Assembly (NCBI GenBank): GCA_944390895.1
Contig: CALXRQ010000005.1
Location: 983-64,982, forward strand
Reading direction: 5' to 3'
DNA: 64,000 nt
DNA from: an uncultured Alphaproteobacteria bacterium
GTDB taxonomy: Bacteria; Pseudomonadota; Alphaproteobacteria; RF32; CAG-239
Part shown: positions 35,111-44,103 of the stretch, in pieces
Numbering within the stretch: position 1 is the first letter of the stretch
Layout of the letters: every line of letters begins with the position of its first letter
Program-made: the position numbers and the translations under genes
Notes under the pieces: generated by a model
What the model was told of the DNA's origin: nothing
Seen by the model: the letters and a program-made list of their open reading frames with translations, nothing else
The model's database searches: none

Positions 35111-35361
35111 TTCTAATTTCCTCAAAAATTCTCTGTTACCATATTTATATAAGAAAACATAATCCAAACTGCAATACGGCGCCTGAACTTTTTTGGCACA
35201 TTTAACCTCTCCGGGCAATCATTAAACTTTTTAATCCACAACAAGCTCCGTTTTGCCCGCAAAAACGCATTTTTAGGTATAATAAATAAACAAATTGAAT
35301 TTGCAGATTAAAAAAAATTATATATTATGTGGTAAACATATTAACAAAAGAAGGTTTTTTC

Positions 35362-35613
35362 ATGGCTGGCTCAAAAATAAACACCGACATCGGCGAAGAA
35401 ATAATGGTTAACGTTTCCGTAACGCTCGGCAGCGCGAACTTGAGGGTTCACCAGCTCTTAAAGCTGGGACGCGGCGCCGTTGTGGAACTGGACCGTGACG
35501 TTAACGACTACGTTGACATCTATGCCAATGATGTCCTGATCGGCCACGGAGAAGTTGTTATAACGGAAAGTGATAAAATCGGCATTTCTATAACCGATAC
35601 CATAAAGAAATAA
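35362..35613 (+). CDS. fliN: FliN/SpoA-domain protein (flagellar switch / T3SS C-ring family), short form
   Basis: V.V.LG...L.V..LL.L..G.VV.LD......DIY.N..LI..GEVV...DK.GI.ITD matches the FliN C-terminal domain. 83 aa. Confidence 0.7.
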   Translation: MAGSKINTDIGEEIMVNVSVTLGSANLRVHQLLKLGRGAVVELDRDVNDYVDIYANDVLIGHGEVVITESDKIGISITDTIKK

Positions 35614-37646: not shown

Positions 37647-38597
37647 ATGAAAACACCGGGCTTTTGGCAGGATAAAAATCTGGTTTCCGATCTTTTGCTG
37701 CCTTTTGGCATAATCTACAATCTGGTCACCAGACTTAATATTCTGTTTTCCAAACCTCGCAAGACAGACCGCCCGGTCATCTGCATCGGCAATCTGACGG
37801 CCGGCGGCACCGGCAAAACTCCGGTTGCGGTTTCCCTTGCCGCCATACTGCAAAAACTCGGCCGCAAACCGTTTTTTGTCTCCCGCGGATACGGCGGAAC
37901 ACTGAAGAACGTCATCGTCGACCCTCAAAAACATTCGGCCGCGGAAGTCGGAGACGAACCTCTGCTTCTTTCAAGGCAGGCGCCGGTTGTCGTCAATCCC
38001 GACCGTTATGCCGCCGCCCAAAAAGCCGTTACCGCCGGAGCTGATATTATCCTGATGGACGACGGCTTCCAAAATCCCGGTTTGCACAAAGATTTGTCTT
38101 TTCTGGTTTTTGACGGTGGTTTCGGATACGGCAACGGCCGCGGCATTCCCGCCGGTCCCCTGCGCGAAAGCCTGCATGACGGACTGAAACGCGCACAGGC
38201 CGTCATCATCATCGGCAAAGACAGACATAATCTGGCACAAAAATTTTCCTTTCTGCCGATATTCAAAGGCACCGTCACAGCGCAAAAACCATCCTCCGCC
38301 AACCGCAGGGCCATTGCCTTTGCCGGCATCGGCCGCCCGCAAAAATTTTACGATTCAATGAAAGAACAAGGTTTTGAATTGCTCAAAACCGTTGATTTCC
38401 CCGATCATCACCAATATTCCGCAGAGGAACTGAACCTTCTCATCAAAGAGGCCGACCAACATCAGGCAGCTCTTTACACCACAGCCAAAGACTTTGTCAA
38501 AATTCCGGCGGAACTGCAAAAACACTTTCAGGTTCTGGAAATTGAAATCCGCTGGGAGAAGCAAGACGAATTGGAAAAGTTTCTGAAAAGAATATAA
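37647..38597 (+). CDS. lpxK: tetraacyldisaccharide 4'-kinase
   Basis: GNLTAGGTGKTP P-loop and SRGYGG motifs. Directly follows waaA. Confidence 0.9.
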   Translation: MKTPGFWQDKNLVSDLLLPFGIIYNLVTRLNILFSKPRKTDRPVICIGNLTAGGTGKTPVAVSLAAILQKLGRKPFFVSRGYGGTLKNVIVDPQKHSAAEVGDEPLLLSRQAPVVVNPDRYAAAQKAVTAGADIILMDDGFQNPGLHKDLSFLVFDGGFGYGNGRGIPAGPLRESLHDGLKRAQAVIIIGKDRHNLAQKFSFLPIFKGTVTAQKPSSANRRAIAFAGIGRPQKFYDSMKEQGFELLKTVDFPDHHQYSAEELNLLIKEADQHQAALYTTAKDFVKIPAELQKHFQVLEIEIRWEKQDELEKFLKRI

Positions 38598-38631
38598 AAA
38601 AAAGAGTTAACATCAACGGTTAGCTCTTTTT
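38598..38631. terminator. bidirectional rho-independent terminator
   Basis: aagagttaac / ggttagctctt stem between an A-run and a T-run, shared by convergent lpxK and the 464-aa gene. Confidence 0.7.
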
Positions 38632-38654
38632 CCGATTTTCAAAGTTTATTTTGC

Positions 38655-40049
38655 TCAGGCCACATTCTGGCTGCGCCCCAAAATCAATGACATGACGTTA
38701 ATTTCCTTTTTGCCGCCGACGTTGGGATTCCGCTTTTGCGCAATTGATTCCGGCTCCTTAATGGACATAGCCACATTGAGTTCTCTGCTCATATCTTCAT
38801 TCGGCGCCGCAAAAATCGAGTTATCATGGTTGGCACCCAGCAGAATTTTATTTTTCAGGTCTTTTTTGTGCCGCTGGTTATGAAGATTACCGTCAATTAT
38901 CATCATAAAGTTACTGATATGGTTAAAGTCAAACTCGTTTCCAGGCACTAAATTATGATATTTTTTCGGAAGTTTGTGATGTATGCTGATATGTTTTTTA
39001 GCAATTTCTTCTTTGCGAAGCTCGCTGGCGTTCTGATACTCCCGTTCTTCGCTCGGAGAAAGGAGCGCCAGTCTGCCGATATTGTTCTTTCCCAGCTTCA
39101 AATCCTTAATCCATAAAGACACGTTGGTTTTCATATAATCGCTTTTCTTGGTGAATCTGTCATAATTCACCTTATTTTTATAGGCCCATAACCCCGTTTC
39201 AAGCGAACTATAGCATTTTTCGGCAATCTTATTGATCGTATCCGCCGAAAAATCATGATTCCCCGAAAATTCTTTAATCATATTATAATGAGAACTGTTG
39301 ACCGCCGACGGATTATTTTTTAACTTTTCTCCCAAATCAAACAAATACCCCATAAGCTTTAAAAACTTCTGCTTACTTTCCGGATTACTGTTAAAATCCT
39401 TTCCCAATTCATCATTTTTAACCGGATCTTCCTGAACGTAATAAACCGAATATCCCAACCCGGAAGTCTGTTTTTTTACGTCATCACTGAGAATTTTGTT
39501 AAAAAGATGATCCGGCTGAACCTTTTGCAACAGAGCAAAATCATCGGCCAGATTCTCTCTTATTTTCTTGATCTTTCCTTTGTCAGAGCTGTTAAGAGAA
39601 CCGCTTTCAATGTTTTTAATCTGATTCTTTTTCAAAAACTCTTCAAAATCTTTTCTCAATTTCTCGCCTTCCTTCGAATCATTTTGGCGATAAAAAGCCA
39701 GACACTCGGCAAGTTTTTCGTTTTTCTGCCGCTCCAAACGCAGCCTGAAGCTTTCGAACAATTCTTCCTGAGGTTTTAACCTGCCGTTATCATCAAGTGC
39801 ATTTAAGCCGTTCAAAATTCCTTCGGCTTTTATACCGGCTTCCAAAGCTTCATCACTTTCATCAACCTTTTTCATGTCGGAAACCAGTTTATCAAGATTT
39901 GCAAGATATGATTTAAACTCCGCGGACTGCGGCTGTCCTGCAGCGTCAAAATCGTTGCAAACGTCGCATGCGGCAATAAGCTTGGTTGCAAAATACACTC
40001 TGTTCGCAAGTAAACTGATATTGGCGGCTTTAGATGTTTTTTTGTCCAT
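38655..40049 (-). CDS. orphan 464-aa protein with C-terminal AHH-like HNH/EndoVII nuclease motif (tentative)
   Basis: AT-rich ORF. C-terminal ...SIHHKLPKKY-N10-FDFNHISNFMMIIDGNLHNQRHKK fits the [AS]HH..P / N / H..H pattern of AHH-type toxin nucleases. No signal peptide. Confidence 0.6.
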   Translation of the reverse strand: MDKKTSKAANISLLANRVYFATKLIAACDVCNDFDAAGQPQSAEFKSYLANLDKLVSDMKKVDESDEALEAGIKAEGILNGLNALDDNGRLKPQEELFESFRLRLERQKNEKLAECLAFYRQNDSKEGEKLRKDFEEFLKKNQIKNIESGSLNSSDKGKIKKIRENLADDFALLQKVQPDHLFNKILSDDVKKQTSGLGYSVYYVQEDPVKNDELGKDFNSNPESKQKFLKLMGYLFDLGEKLKNNPSAVNSSHYNMIKEFSGNHDFSADTINKIAEKCYSSLETGLWAYKNKVNYDRFTKKSDYMKTNVSLWIKDLKLGKNNIGRLALLSPSEEREYQNASELRKEEIAKKHISIHHKLPKKYHNLVPGNEFDFNHISNFMMIIDGNLHNQRHKKDLKNKILLGANHDNSIFAAPNEDMSRELNVAMSIKEPESIAQKRNPNVGGKKEINVMSLILGRSQNVA

Positions 40050-40082
40050 ATCATTATCCTAATCTGACATTTATATGCTTAA

Positions 40083-40111
40083 ATTATGCATCTCTTATGC
40101 CTTTTTGTCAA
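40083..40111 (-). promoter_or_regulatory. candidate sigma70 promoter (TTGACA-17-CATAAT) for the 464-aa gene
   Basis: Read on the minus strand. The -10 ends about 33 nt before the ATG, and an AGGA RBS follows. Confidence 0.5.
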
Positions 40112-40138
40112 TTAACAAAAATATAAAGTAAAAAAATA

Positions 40139-40167
40139 TTGACAAAATAACCAAAATATCATATATA
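40139..40167 (+). promoter_or_regulatory. candidate sigma70 promoter (TTGACA-17-TATATA) for the 116-aa gene
   Basis: Consensus -35 with a 17-nt spacer. The -10 ends about 32 nt before the ATG at 40200. Confidence 0.5.
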
Positions 40168-40199
40168 TTTCCTGCTTACATGAATTAATAAATTATTCT

Positions 40200-40550
40200 A
40201 TGAAAACATTTGACATGTTGAAACAAAGTTTCAATATTGAAAAAAAATCTTTGAAATGGGCAGTTATTGAAGAAACGGTAAACGGCGTTACGGCATATAA
40301 AGCCGGTATAATGCTGAGCAAATCAAAACTGTTCATTGATATCTGTCAGCGGCGGTTCTATACCGAGGTTCATTTGCCCGAACTGTCGCGCAGAGTTTTT
40401 CCGGCAAAACGCATACTAAAATCAGAAAAAATTGTTTTTCAGGCTTTGGAAGATTCTTCCAAAAGCGTAAGTATGCCGAAAAACTTCATACAAGACATAT
40501 ATTCCGTCTGCTGGTATGACAAACAACTGGAAAAACAAATACTGTTATAA
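40200..40550 (+). CDS. orphan 116-aa protein, divergent from the AHH-like gene
   Basis: Uninterrupted ORF in roughly 30-35% GC DNA, where stops should be frequent. Own promoter and terminator. No obvious SD and no family recognised. Confidence 0.5.
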   Translation: MKTFDMLKQSFNIEKKSLKWAVIEETVNGVTAYKAGIMLSKSKLFIDICQRRFYTEVHLPELSRRVFPAKRILKSEKIVFQALEDSSKSVSMPKNFIQDIYSVCWYDKQLEKQILL

Positions 40551-40592
40551 AAAAAAGAGATAAATTTCTTTATGAAATTTATCTCTTTTTTT
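40549..40592. terminator. bidirectional rho-independent terminator
   Basis: A6 - agagataaatttc / gaaatttatctct perfect 13-bp stem - T7. Confidence 0.85.
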
Positions 40593-40603
40593 TACATAAA
40601 CCG

Positions 40604-41524
40604 CTATTCGAAAATATTGACGTAATCGCCTTTTTCAAAAACGGAGCCGTCAACAAAACGGTGCCCCTCGTCCAAAACCGCAATTTTTTCCATATCCGCT
40701 TCGTCAAGTTCCACCGCCAGAGAAGCAAAATTTTCCCTGATGCGCTCCTGATGAACCGACTTTGGAATAACAATCACGCCGCGTTGCATCATCCAGGCCA
40801 AAACCAGCTGTGCCGCCGTAACTTTCAAACGTTTGGCCATCTCCTGAACCACGGCATTGTCCAAAACTCCATGTCCTCCGGCATTATGTTGAGAACCGAG
40901 CGGAGAGTAAGCCGTAACGGCAATATTATTCTTTTGGCAGAAATCAATCAGTTCCTTTTGCTGCAGCAGCGGATGACACTCGACCTGATTAACCGCCGGC
41001 AAAACGGAAGCCTGTTCCAAAAGTTCTGCCAGACGTTTCGGTCCGAAATTGGATACGCCGATTGCCTTAACCAAACCGTCATTATAGGCTTTTTCCATTT
41101 CCGCCCAAGTCAAATCAATCGGTATGTCTTTCAAGGAAACCATATCATCGTCGCTTTCCGGAACCCCCGTACCTTTTTTCTGAGCCACCGGCCAATGCAT
41201 CAGATACAGGTCCAGATAATCCAACTGCAAATCTTTCAATGTCCGCTCCAAAGCCGGACGCACGTCTTCGGGCGCATGCGAGTCATTCCAAAGTTTAGAC
41301 GTAATGAACAGCTCTTCCCGCTTAATGTCTCCTTCACTGACCGCATCTTTAAGCGCCTGCCCTATTTCGCTCTCATTGCCGTAAATGCTGGCACAGTCAA
41401 TATGCCGGTAACCGAGCTTGATTGCCCAGCGAACCGCCTGATAAACCTCTCCGGGAGCAGCCCGCCAGGTTCCCAAACCGATAATCGGCATTTCCCGTTC
41501 AGTATTCAATTTCACGCTTTTCAT
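40604..41524 (-). CDS. aldo/keto reductase
   Basis: MPIIGLGTW, HIDCA..YGNE, LW....H and VSNF motifs of AKR (2,5-diketo-D-gluconate reductase-like). Confidence 0.85.
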   Translation of the reverse strand: MKSVKLNTEREMPIIGLGTWRAAPGEVYQAVRWAIKLGYRHIDCASIYGNESEIGQALKDAVSEGDIKREELFITSKLWNDSHAPEDVRPALERTLKDLQLDYLDLYLMHWPVAQKKGTGVPESDDDMVSLKDIPIDLTWAEMEKAYNDGLVKAIGVSNFGPKRLAELLEQASVLPAVNQVECHPLLQQKELIDFCQKNNIAVTAYSPLGSQHNAGGHGVLDNAVVQEMAKRLKVTAAQLVLAWMMQRGVIVIPKSVHQERIRENFASLAVELDEADMEKIAVLDEGHRFVDGSVFEKGDYVNIFE

Positions 41525-41643
41525 TAACTTCTCCTTGTTAGAAATACATCGTCAGCACCAGATATAATCGCGAAATATCCGGCTTAAAGAGAAACAGAAT
41601 AAATAAAGTTTTAACCATAAAAACTTTTTGTCCATTTTCACAA

Positions 41644-41672
41644 TTGACACCCCTGGAATATTGTGATATATA
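41644..41672 (+). promoter_or_regulatory. candidate sigma70 promoter (TTGACA-17-TATATA with TGn extended -10)
   Basis: Read directly, about 95 nt upstream of the 41766 ATG. Confidence 0.5.
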
Positions 41673-41765
41673 TTTCAGCAATCAACTACATTTATGCTTA
41701 TTACTATGAACCGTGATGTTATTCGCAAGCCATACTGATAAGCTTCACTTAAAAAAATTTACAAA

Positions 41766-42200
41766 ATGAAAAAATTAGTAAAAAAATTCATGAGTATGCC
41801 TAACGAAGCTAAAGCAAACCTCTTGGACGGTACCGGTCTGCTGGGAATAATAGCCGTCTTGGCATTCGTTGTTTTCGCCGAAGAAAGCGTTGTCGCCAAC
41901 TACATGCTCGGTTTCTTTGGTTTTCTTTTGAGTTGCGGTTCCGTAATTATGGTCCGCGAAGCCAAAAACTGCAAAGAAGGCACCGTTCCGCGAATGATGA
42001 TTCGTTCCGCTTTCAGCATTACGGCTTATGCTCCGCTTATGTGTATCCTTGAAAACTGGCTGGAAAAATTCGATCTGACAGTTATGCCTTTTGCCGGCTG
42101 GATACTGGGAAGCCTGATGATTTGGTTTATTTTTTCTCTGGCGGCTTTTATATTTATAACCGCTGCAGAAGCATTTGCCAAACGAAGAACCCGCTGCTGA
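41766..42200 (+). CDS. hypothetical polytopic membrane protein
   Basis: 144 aa with 4 hydrophobic helices. No SD seen and no family recognised. Confidence 0.5.
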   Translation: MKKLVKKFMSMPNEAKANLLDGTGLLGIIAVLAFVVFAEESVVANYMLGFFGFLLSCGSVIMVREAKNCKEGTVPRMMIRSAFSITAYAPLMCILENWLEKFDLTVMPFAGWILGSLMIWFIFSLAAFIFITAAEAFAKRRTRC

Positions 42201-42271
42201 TAACAACACATTTATTTTCCGATACCTTGGCGCTAAACAACGCCAAGGTATTTTCCTAAACAAAACTCATT

Positions 42272-42475
42272 ATGCTGTTTATTGAAAGTAAATTGATTAT
42301 TTTCGCAATCGGTTTCATTACGGTCGGCATCATCGGCCTGATTATGGACCACAATTGGGACAAACGCCACGGCACGCGTTATGACCGCTATGGCAATGAA
42401 ATATCCGGCAATACAACTGGCGGACTTATATTCCTATGGTGTTGTTTCGGAGGAATCCTGCTTTTTCTCTTATAA
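42272..42475 (+). CDS. hypothetical small membrane protein
   Basis: 67 aa with two hydrophobic helices. A terminator follows. Confidence 0.4.
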   Translation: MLFIESKLIIFAIGFITVGIIGLIMDHNWDKRHGTRYDRYGNEISGNTTGGLIFLWCCFGGILLFLL

Positions 42476-42482
42476 ACACTCG

Positions 42483-42517
42483 AAAAAAACGGCATCCTTC
42501 AAGGACGCCGCTTTTTT
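42483..42517 (+). terminator. rho-independent terminator
   Basis: cggcatcc / ggacgccg stem followed by T6. Confidence 0.7.
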
Positions 42518-42624
42518 AATTACACAATTTGCACAAAACAAAATAAATACCTAAAGTTTTCATTTGACACTTAACCTTTTATAAAATAACCTGATTATGC
42601 AATGGTTGATTACCGTTGTGAGGT

Positions 42625-42758
42625 TTAGAACCCTCTGTTGATAGTTGTCTGCTTAGCAGACGTAAAAAGCTACCTTTTGGTCTTTATGACTGGAAGGTAG
42701 TTAATAAGGTATATGCATATACCAAATACACTACACTATTCTATCAAATAGGTTCTAA
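42625..42758 (+). other. multi-hairpin structured element in the leader of the OMP gene (cis-regulatory RNA or MITE-like insert)
   Basis: Outer helix 42625..42644 / 42741..42758 encloses three hairpins, including a perfect 16-nt palindrome ggtatatgcatatacc. Confidence 0.5.
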
Positions 42759-42820
42759 CTTCCAGTCGCCTCTCATCAAGGCGATTTAGTTTTATATATA
42801 AAATGAAAGGAAGTTATTAA

Positions 42821-43537
42821 ATGAACAAAACTTTACTCTTGGCGGGCGTCGCTTCCGCTTTATTTGCTTTCAATGCAAATGCTATGGATTTTAATCAATA
42901 TGTTTCTGCAAAAGGTGCTTTTGTAAAAATGGAAAATGATGCTGGTGTAAATTCTCATTATTCTTTCAGCGGAACAAATCACCATTATAATAAAATTTTG
43001 GATAACAACCACAAAGATGATGTCTGGGGAATTAGATTGGCTTATGGTGCTGCGACTCCCGTAAAATACGGTAAATTAAGAGGTGAATTGGAATTTGGCT
43101 GGAATGAAGACGCAAAAGATTCTTCCACAAATGCTTTTAAGGTTATTACTCCAGCAACGGTAAATGCAACAACGGAAACATCTGTTTATTCAGCAATGTT
43201 GAATGTTTATTACGATATTGAAACAGGAACCAAATTTACACCTTATGTTGGAGCGGGTTTAGGTTATGCGAGAGTCGAAAGCAAAGCATCATTGCCTGAT
43301 AATGGTGTAAGCCAAAAGTCAAGTGATAACAATTTGGCTTGGCAAATTGGTGCCGGTGTATCTTATGCTATGACGGACAATATTTCATTTGATGCAGGTT
43401 ATAGATATACTGATTATGGAAATGTTAAAGATTCAGGACAAATGAATGTTGCTCCATTCAAAAAGCCGTTTGATGTATCATCAAAATATGATGTCACATC
43501 TCATGAATTCTTACTCGGTGCCAGATACTCTTTCTAA
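42821..43537 (+). CDS. outer-membrane beta-barrel protein (OMP_b-brl/opacity-porin family), low-GC
   Basis: AAAGGAAG RBS, signal peptide ...FNANA, beta-strand pattern, C-terminal GARYSF. Roughly 32-35% GC versus roughly 50% nearby. Confidence 0.8.
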   Translation: MNKTLLLAGVASALFAFNANAMDFNQYVSAKGAFVKMENDAGVNSHYSFSGTNHHYNKILDNNHKDDVWGIRLAYGAATPVKYGKLRGELEFGWNEDAKDSSTNAFKVITPATVNATTETSVYSAMLNVYYDIETGTKFTPYVGAGLGYARVESKASLPDNGVSQKSSDNNLAWQIGAGVSYAMTDNISFDAGYRYTDYGNVKDSGQMNVAPFKKPFDVSSKYDVTSHEFLLGARYSF

Positions 43538-43567
43538 TCACCGACCAACAAAATAGTTTTTTTTCAC

Positions 43568-43598
43568 AAAAAGGGCTGTGTAAATCACAGCCCTTTTC
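43568..43598 (+). terminator. rho-independent terminator
   Basis: gggctgtg / cacagccc stem followed by T4. Confidence 0.7.
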
Positions 43599-43641
43599 AC
43601 AAAAATAAGTAATTTTAGTTTAAAATCTCTTTTCATCACAA

Positions 43642-44030
43642 AAAAGCCGCCATCAAAGGCGGCTTGCAGTGGCGGAGAGTACAGAATGGCTAAGTAAAAA
43701 ACTGACCAATGTCAGTTTTTTGTCTGCAACATCTCAGAAATGCCGGTAAGCAAGGAAAGCGACAGCAACCGCAGCGAGCCATGAATTTCTGAGGCGTAGT
43801 CCTGTCTCCAATACAAAAGCCGCCATCAAAGGCGGCTTGCAGTGGCGGAGAGTACAGAATGGCTAAGTAAAAAACTGACCAATGTCAGTTTTTTGTCTGC
43901 AACATCTCAGAAATGCCGGTAAGCAAGGAAAGCGACAGCAACCGCAGCGAGCCATGAATTTCTGAGGCATAGTCCTGTCTCCAATACAAAAGCCGCCATC
44001 AAAGGCGGCTTGCAGTGGCGGAGAGTACAG
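43642..44030 (-). repeat. 173-bp tandem repeat (2 full units + 43-nt partial unit merging into tRNA-Ser 3' end)
   Basis: Units 43642..43814 and 43815..43987 differ at one base (43796 G / 43969 A). Each starts with the tRNA terminator hairpin plus the antisense of the last 15 nt of tRNA-Ser. Confidence 0.9.
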
Positions 44031-44103
44031 GACTCGAACCTGTGCATCGGTATTCCCGATGACGGATTAGCAATCCGCTGCATTACCACTCTGCCAACTC
44101 TCC
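44016..44103 (-). tRNA. tRNA-Ser (anticodon GCU), class II with long variable arm
   Basis: Hand-folded: acceptor GGAGAGT/ACTCTCC, anticodon loop TTGCTAA, variable arm CATCGGGAATACCGATGC, T-arm ACAGG-TTCGAGT-CCTGT, encoded CCA. 88 nt. Confidence 0.9.

Follow-up and report, generated by a model that had tools for sequence, protein, structure and literature searches.

A divergent gene pair encoding a candidate HNH-like nuclease and a small basic partner, inserted between lpxK and an aldo-keto reductase gene of an uncultured alphaproteobacterium

Introduction

What is a pair of genes of no evident family doing between two convergent core genes? In an uncultured alphaproteobacterium (GTDB lineage RF32; CAG-239), lpxK and a convergently oriented aldo-keto reductase (AKR) gene are separated by an AT-rich islet which encodes a 464-aa protein and, divergently from it, a 116-aa protein. 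We analysed this pair within a window of 64,000 nucleotides (assembly GCA_944390895.1, contig CALXRQ010000005.1, positions 983 to 64,982 of the forward strand; coordinates below are those of the window). A preliminary description of the same DNA had proposed a horizontally acquired effector with an AHH-type nuclease C-terminus, or a defence-type nuclease. We find that the pair is a new, unannotated family, in which an HNH-like nuclease candidate comes with an obligate small partner, the two genes being arranged divergently in an unusual way. The large protein probably works like an HNH nuclease, and we tentatively favour, at a little under even confidence, a reading in which this new nuclease is restrained or regulated by its small basic partner.

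Results

The C-terminal domain of the large protein displays an HNH-like pattern

Residues 1-340 of the large protein are all alpha-helical, and residues 341-464 make up a conserved C-terminal domain. The motif which had drawn attention to this domain, HISIHHKLPKKYH...NHISNFMMIIDGNLHNQRHKK, is indeed encoded at nt 38862-38993 and corresponds to residues 353-396. In an alignment of 31 sequences (mean column identity 30%), H358, N380 and H390 are the only invariant residues, and H357, N376, I385 and G386 are nearly invariant. H357 is replaced by Asp in three sequences, and H394 by Glu throughout the distant clade of the family; both are canonical swaps that would preserve a metal ligand.

The AF2 model of the full-length protein is confident only over the helical N-terminal 340 residues. 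A second AF2 model, of residues 296-464 and with a deeper alignment, has a pLDDT of 76.5 (about 70-89 in the core part) and a pTM of 0.65. It shows a strand at 354-358 (ISIHH), two short helices, a second strand at 381-385 (FMMII) and a helix at 387-394 (GNLHNQRH), with H357-H358 ending the first strand, N380 directly before the second, and both H390 and H394 on the helix.

In the active site of His-Me finger enzymes, the catalytic His lies at the end of strand 1, directly preceded by an Asp, Glu or His ligand, and an Asn is found in the inter-strand loop, while the helix carries a His or Asn in its first turn and a further polar ligand at +4 (PMC5714182; PMC3113570). The C-terminal domain follows this layout: H358 is positioned at the C-terminal end of the first strand with H357 (or Asp) before it, N380 (invariant, with N376 nearly so) lies between the two strands, and the invariant H390 is followed at +4 by H394 or Glu. 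The spacing, HH-22-N-10-H-4-H, is close to the HH-15-N-9-H-4-H of colicin E9, whose sequence we verified. From this pattern we infer nuclease activity.

Database searches returned no known family. Pfam, including AHH (PF14412), matched neither the large protein nor ten distant homologues, and individual scans of 22 C-terminal domains at E<=10 were empty as well. NCBIfam, PADLOC and PHROGs yielded nothing significant for either protein, nor did scans of the members of the small-protein alignment against family libraries, and the large protein has no match among the anti-phage systems of PADLOC-DB v2. Sequence and profile searches of the PDB with the full protein and with the family, C-terminal and small-protein profiles found no match. 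hhalign against colicins E9 and E7 gave a probability of 1%, weakly placing the HH-x-P stretch on HH-x-K-P of E9. Foldseek searches with the full-length model (PDB) and the C-terminal model (PDB and BFVD) returned no match at E<1 (best E 1.7-1.8); viral ‘Endonuclease I’ and ‘HNH endonuclease’ matches, at E 2.9-5.5 only, were rejected as evidence.

These results divide the original proposal. Membership of the AHH family has to be given up: PF14412 does not match, and in place of the AHH tripeptide, almost absolutely conserved in that family, the motif reads S-[IV]-H-H, or [IV]-D-H in three members. The broader suggestion of an HNH-like C-terminus is supported by a convincing residue pattern, with the three sole invariants placed on the predicted beta-beta-alpha unit of the AF2 model, and finds no significant database match. 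Absence of a beta-beta-alpha-metal fold from profile or structure searches had been named as grounds for rejecting the proposal; none was recovered by Foldseek, PDB profiles or hhalign, so that at the level of database searches these grounds formally exist, while the topology of the model does agree with such a fold. Significant profile or structural similarity to established His-Me finger members was likewise not found in these searches.

The two genes form a conserved unit

Both proteins had been described as orphans, which proved wrong. An exhaustive HMMER search of 1.84 billion representative proteins recovered the representatives of 26 clusters for the large protein (E<=0.001). Its full-length homologues are about 44% identical, with none found above 45%, and a distant clade of about 520-700 aa is 18-23% identical; homologues of the small protein are 35-59% identical. 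Named entries among the large-protein homologues read ‘hypothetical protein [Alphaproteobacteria bacterium]’ and stem from metagenome-assembled genomes. The architecture is fixed, as 26/26 representatives are of the full-length type or fragments of it, and the C-terminal domain never occurs on another N-terminus. Neither a signal peptide nor a trafficking domain was found in the large protein. Two independent pairs of relatives gave dN/dS values of 0.05-0.17, which shows purifying selection on both genes.

One cluster, P0012, contains recurrent truncated forms of 65, 153, 368 and 385 aa next to a full length of 469 aa, on several contigs; the 65-aa and 385-aa forms both have a longest contig of 6,493 bases and may come from one contig. 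These forms suggest alleles split by a frameshift or stop, and the large gene may be inactive in some strains.

Wherever 160 bp or more of sequence upstream of the large-gene homologue is available, the small gene is found there in divergent orientation, with the exception of L108, the most divergent member, where the upstream sequence contains an unrelated ORF that is no partner homologue. An all-versus-all ORF comparison of nine lineage contexts showed only the large and small genes to be shared, and no third conserved neighbourhood gene among them. The preliminary description had spoken of a non-canonical immunity arrangement; strict conservation of the divergent small gene in the family bears out the arrangement and indicates a functional link only, which does not amount to a demonstration of immunity.

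The small protein of the window has a pI of 9.5, and the partner is basic in 8/9 lineages (pI 8.7-9.9), and so fits a nucleic-acid-binding role, for example as a repressor bound to the inverted repeat that covers both -35 boxes (see below). Its C-terminus (...E-x-x-x-L-L) is conserved up to the final residue; a role as a protease tag is speculation. A match of the small protein to AbiEi in PADLOC-DB v2 (E = 0.027) was confined to one member and was rejected, as it was reproduced in 0/8 other members. A mirror-tree style comparison of the two proteins gave r = 0.72, a value that is dominated by two close pairs and is uninformative on physical interaction. The small protein of the window is nearest to the L007 type (57%, against 40% to L001) and the large protein to L001/L005 (44-45%, against 39% to L007), so that the two proteins are mildly incongruent; unequal rates, or recombination inside the module, could account for this.

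Two monocistronic units share a compact control region

The islet spans the 2,006 bp that separate the lpxK stop from the AKR stop. Its features and flanking genes are as follows.

37647..38597, + strand: lpxK (ORF listing)
38593..38610, + strand: left copy of an 18-nt direct repeat (TATAAAAAAAAGAGTTAA), overlapping the lpxK stop codon; left insertion edge
38598..38631, both strands: bidirectional hairpin terminator between the convergent lpxK and large gene (fold compared with shuffles)
38655..40049, - strand: large gene, for the 464-aa protein (ORF, homologues, models, dN/dS)
38862..38993, - strand: putative His-Me finger (HNH-like) core, residues 353-396 (invariant residues and AF2 secondary structure)
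40083..40111, - strand: large-gene promoter, sigma-70-type, TTGACA-17-CATAAT (11/12 consensus positions)
40103..40147, both strands: back-to-back -35 boxes within a perfect 10-nt inverted repeat, TTTTGTCAAT / ATTGACAAAA (repeat search)
40139..40167, + strand: small-gene promoter, sigma-70-type, TTGACA-17-TATATA (sequence and alignment)
40200..40550, + strand: small gene, monocistronic, for the 116-aa basic partner (ORF, homologues)
40546..40563, + strand: right copy of the 18-nt direct repeat (TATAAAAAAAAGAGATAA), overlapping the small-gene stop codon
40548..40594, both strands: bidirectional hairpin terminator with a perfect 21-bp stem between the convergent small gene and AKR gene (fold compared with shuffles)
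40604..41524, - strand: AKR gene (ORF listing)

The two ORFs, both promoters, both boundary hairpins and the lack of any gene downstream of the large ORF on its own strand had all been reported before, and each of these observations holds. The TTGACA-17-CATAAT site (minus strand, 40111->40083) is the best promoter-like site of the region. The left hairpin, flanked by an A-run and a T-run, folds at -13.4 kcal/mol (z -4.3 against shuffles) on the + strand and -10.6 kcal/mol (z -2.5) on the - strand, and the right hairpin has z-scores of -9.1 and -9.5 on the two strands; both thus fold much better than shuffled sequence. Scans with Rfam and for tRNAs found no element inside the islet.

We aligned nine intergenic regions from lineages whose proteins share only 20-45% identity. 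Both -35 hexamers are invariant in 9/9, back to back (TTGTCAAT ... TTGACA), and in most relatives the small gene has a TG-extended -10. In the window, both -35 boxes are covered by the perfect inverted repeat TTTTGTCAAT-N25-ATTGACAAAA, both arms of which are conserved in 9/9 regions; by its position, this repeat is a possible operator. In 8/8 relatives examined, the small gene is followed by a hairpin and T-run of its own. Together with the back-to-back promoters, these terminators define two separate monocistronic units with a shared compact divergent control region.

The pair was inserted at the lpxK-AKR junction

A metagenome scan for LpxK yielded 80 loci, 79 of them from other species, and in 0/79 of the latter is the gene pair found downstream of lpxK. 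In the closest relatives, whose KdtA and LpxK are 74-82% and 58-65% identical to those of the window, the convergent AKR gene comes directly after lpxK. L028 has a spacer of 28 bp and L036 one of 10 bp; the two genes are also adjacent in L044, and the distance between them in these three loci is 10-50 bp. We therefore conclude, in agreement with the earlier view of the islet as an insertion, that the pair was inserted in the window. In L029, from a related gut species (‘Azospirillum sp. CAG:260’ / Ca. Scatocola), the same junction carries a different, unrelated 236-aa gene (L029:4932-5642, - strand) with two C-x-C-G-x-S-x(5)-FCDGSH motifs, CDGSH iron-sulfur-like by eye, and it seems therefore that genes have been inserted at this junction repeatedly.

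The 18-nt direct repeat (TATAAAAAAAAGAG[T/A]TAA, 17/18 identical) brackets the insertion. Its copies overlap the stop codons of lpxK and the small gene, and each also overlaps the 5' half of a terminator stem. The repeat could be a recombination footprint, or a mere likeness of terminators.

The GC content is 0.399 for the large gene and 0.368 for the small gene, compared with 0.508 for lpxK and a mean of 0.481 (sd 0.032) for the 33 other genes of the window, which places the pair 8-11 GC points under its neighbours; GC at third codon positions (GC3) lies below the window mean by 1.3 sd (large gene) and 2.1 sd (small gene). The reported dip in GC exists, although its original figures (30-37% against 55-60%) overstated it. 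In relatives, module and remaining locus mostly differ by no more than about 4 GC points, the small gene of L007/L008 (7 points) being the exception, over a range of locus GC of 0.33-0.53.

Beyond the right end of the islet, the stretch running from the AKR gene up to a tRNA-Ser gene (window around 41500-43700) is AT-rich throughout and contains two small unannotated ORFs (144 and 67 aa) with a membrane-like look. An OmpA/Opacity-like outer-membrane beta-barrel gene at 42821-43537 (+ strand; GC 0.364, GC3 0.25) is a stronger compositional outlier than the islet. The tRNA-Ser(GCT) gene (44016-44103, - strand), which ends the AT-rich stretch, lies 3.4 kb right of the islet and is not insertion-adjacent. 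On the other side, directly upstream of the lipid A/Kdo cluster, a 94-aa ORF (35329-35613, + strand) has by eye the look of a FliN/SpoA-type flagellar switch domain.

The module is sporadic between lineages and stable within its species

By exact-sequence lookup, the proteins of L028, L029 and L036 belong to abundantly sampled gut species with hundreds to over 1000 contigs; one of these species is named ‘Azospirillum sp. CAG:260 / Candidatus Scatocola faecipullorum’. The clusters of the large-protein family, by comparison, have 1-67 members only. Given these small clusters and the lack of a homologue above 45% identity in the face of such sampling, the nearest relatives probably lack the module.

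Within the species of the window, 11 independent assemblies always have the pair at this site, with a nucleotide diversity (0-0.43%) on a par with that of lpxK and AKR. Among lineages, the pair occupies at least 6 different housekeeping neighbourhoods, beside genes for serine dehydratase/AnmK, a class II tRNA synthetase, a CoA-transferase with ribosomal proteins S9/L13, ATP synthase or phosphofructokinase. In the loci examined, integrases, transposases and phage genes are never beside the pair, and tblastn against plasmid and phage collections found no relatives of it. In one lineage (L002-L004), the second gene along from the large-gene homologue, at a distance of about 2 kb, is of the VirB8 family of type IV secretion components; it was seen in no other lineage, and its proximity is probably coincidental.

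Discussion

We interpret the islet as an inserted, self-contained two-gene module whose two monocistronic units would be transcribed outward from back-to-back consensus promoters, each to a terminator of its own. The large product would be cytoplasmic and mainly alpha-helical. A highly divergent His-Me finger (HNH / beta-beta-alpha-metal) nuclease is the likeliest identity of its C-terminal domain, and in it H358 would be the general base, H357 (Asp in some members), H390 and H394 (Glu in others) the metal ligands, and N380 the residue that braces the loop. The 116-aa partner would control this presumably toxic nuclease, either by binding it, in the manner of an antidote or immunity protein, or by binding the inverted repeat which spans both -35 boxes, as a repressor. 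It could unite antidote and repressor functions, as many antitoxins do. The pair would then be a toxin/antidote-type conflict or defence module, sporadic and relocating among gut Alphaproteobacteria without mobility genes. Its sporadic spread, its relocation per lineage, its insertion here, the strict two-gene unit and the nuclease-like effector argue for a system of the conflict type.

Several observations weigh against this interpretation. No significant similarity to known nucleases or other families emerged from any of the resources searched (Pfam, NCBIfam, PADLOC, PHROGs, PDB profiles, Foldseek and hhalign). Known nuclease inhibitors such as Im9, barstar and NuiA are acidic DNA mimics, and the small protein is basic in nearly all lineages. 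The two genes are divergent and monocistronic, with no co-transcription, and L108, the most divergent member (666 aa), is without a small gene in the available 468 bp upstream. In relatives, the module is close in composition to the surrounding genome and sits in a core-gene setting. Flanking-level diversity within the species, together with low dN/dS between relatives, leaves no arms-race signature.

Two alternatives dispense with a conflict system, and we consider each of them unlikely, to a similar degree. In one, the large protein is a lineage-restricted cellular enzyme of DNA or RNA processing (repair, recombination, nucleoid or RNA turnover), and the small basic protein its accessory subunit or dedicated transcription factor. 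The constant housekeeping surroundings, free of mobility, phage or plasmid genes, would suit such an enzyme, as would a GC content near that of the locus in relatives, low diversity under purifying selection, a basic partner, and strongly conserved consensus promoters that suggest steady, high expression. A cellular enzyme would be harder to reconcile with a sporadic distribution (the abundant nearest relatives yielded no homologue), with a different site per lineage and a clear insertion here, or with the possible split alleles of one cluster. In the other alternative the large protein does not cut nucleic acids: it is a helical scaffold whose H357/H358, N380 and H390/H394 make up a treble-clef-like metal site with a structural or regulatory purpose, and the small protein is a divergent regulator. 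This is consistent with uniformly negative database and fold searches and with a C-terminal part that is confidently modelled only with a deeper alignment, and a repressor would be in keeping with a basic small protein and with an inverted repeat that covers the two -35 boxes. The placement of the invariant residues (strand end, loop, first helical turn) and the Asp and Glu swaps, however, match the catalytic grammar of His-Me fingers beyond what a metal site entails.

Delivery to competitors is a far less probable function. An AHH-family polymorphic toxin with the 116-aa protein as its immunity protein in an unusual orientation, close to what had first been proposed, could draw on the C-terminal HH...N...H...H pattern, the conserved pairing and the inserted, AT-rich location. 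We regard it as very improbable: 22 members have no match to PF14412 or another toxin domain at E<=10, [IV]HH or DH stands where AHH would be expected, the architecture is invariable in 26/26 representatives with the C-terminal domain on no other N-terminus, signal peptide, trafficking domain and downstream immunity gene are all absent, and strain-level hypervariability gives way to strong purifying selection. The behaviour expected of a polymorphic toxin is thus not seen, and the module does not look like a secreted one. To a nuclease bacteriocin resembling colicins or pyocins, with a helical receptor/translocation N-terminus, a C-terminal DNase and an immunity protein, we give hardly any weight. 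The layout of a helical N-terminus, a ~110-aa HNH-like C-terminal domain and a partner of roughly 100 aa is that of DNase colicins, and hhalign sets the HH on the HH of E9/E7, but it does so with a probability of 1%; furthermore, the partner is basic and lacks co-transcription, the module has two genes only and no lysis gene, inspection of the intergenic region by eye revealed no SOS box, and the locus is chromosomal, not plasmid-borne.

Returning to the nuclease-and-partner interpretation, a bolder form of it would be an undescribed conflict system confined to gut-associated Alphaproteobacteria, in which a new and very divergent branch of the His-Me fingers is joined to a novel ~340-aa helical sensor/regulatory domain and governed by a new-fold basic partner, at once antidote and repressor, acting on the inverted repeat, and which spreads by illegitimate recombination at terminator-like A8GAG repeats without a recombinase. 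In this full form we hold the proposal to be rather doubtful. If the interpretation is true, the divergent, monocistronic pair with back-to-back consensus promoters is a new gene-pair architecture among nuclease-based toxin/antidote or defence modules. Its hosts, relatives of ‘Azospirillum sp. CAG:260’ / Candidatus Scatocola, are poorly studied, uncultured gut Alphaproteobacteria, and the locus offers a clean natural case in which a small cassette, flanked by an 18-nt repeat, was inserted between convergent core genes. Unless defence or killing can be demonstrated as a phenotype, the practical impact would be modest.

Comparison with known systems

The candidate site shares with the His-Me finger superfamily (PMC5714182) a His at the end of strand 1, an Asn before strand 2, a His in the first turn of the helix and the predicted strand-strand-helix order, as well as a His or Asp ligand preceding the catalytic His and a His or Glu ligand at helix +4. 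It differs in that no member is matched significantly by sequence, profile or fold, in its 22-residue inter-strand loop with two short helices, and in the roughly 70 aa that follow the helix, which are conserved and rich in beta structure. The AHH/LHH/WHH toxin domains (PF14412 and relatives; PMC3113570) are alike in their strand-1 HH dyad and two helix histidines, on a derived HNH without the treble-clef cysteines. Here, in contrast, there is no HMM match, the dyad reads [IV]HH or DH, a single architecture without hypervariability prevails, and neither a trafficking domain nor a SUKH or other downstream immunity gene accompanies it. Polymorphic toxins are further marked by a shuffled C-terminal toxin and a same-strand downstream immunity gene; neither is found, and in all loci the partner lies upstream in divergent orientation.

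DNase colicins and S-type pyocins with their Im proteins (E9/Im9, E7/Im7) resemble the pair in the helical N-terminus, the similarly spaced HH...N...H...H residues and the dedicated partner of ~100 aa. The partner described here is, however, divergent, monocistronic and basic rather than acidic, and the locus is chromosomal, without a lysis gene or SOS control and with an hhalign probability of 1%; a Colicin-DNase domain, a co-transcribed Im gene and a lysis gene are all missing. Compared with toxin-antitoxin and small defence modules, the pair has no operon, a large component of 464 aa and no PADLOC match, and for type II toxin-antitoxin systems in particular operon structure disagrees while distribution and relocation agree. 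With such modules it shares the two-gene unit, the sporadic occurrence, the new site per lineage without mobility genes and the insertion between core genes, and the inverted repeat over both -35 boxes may allow autoregulation.

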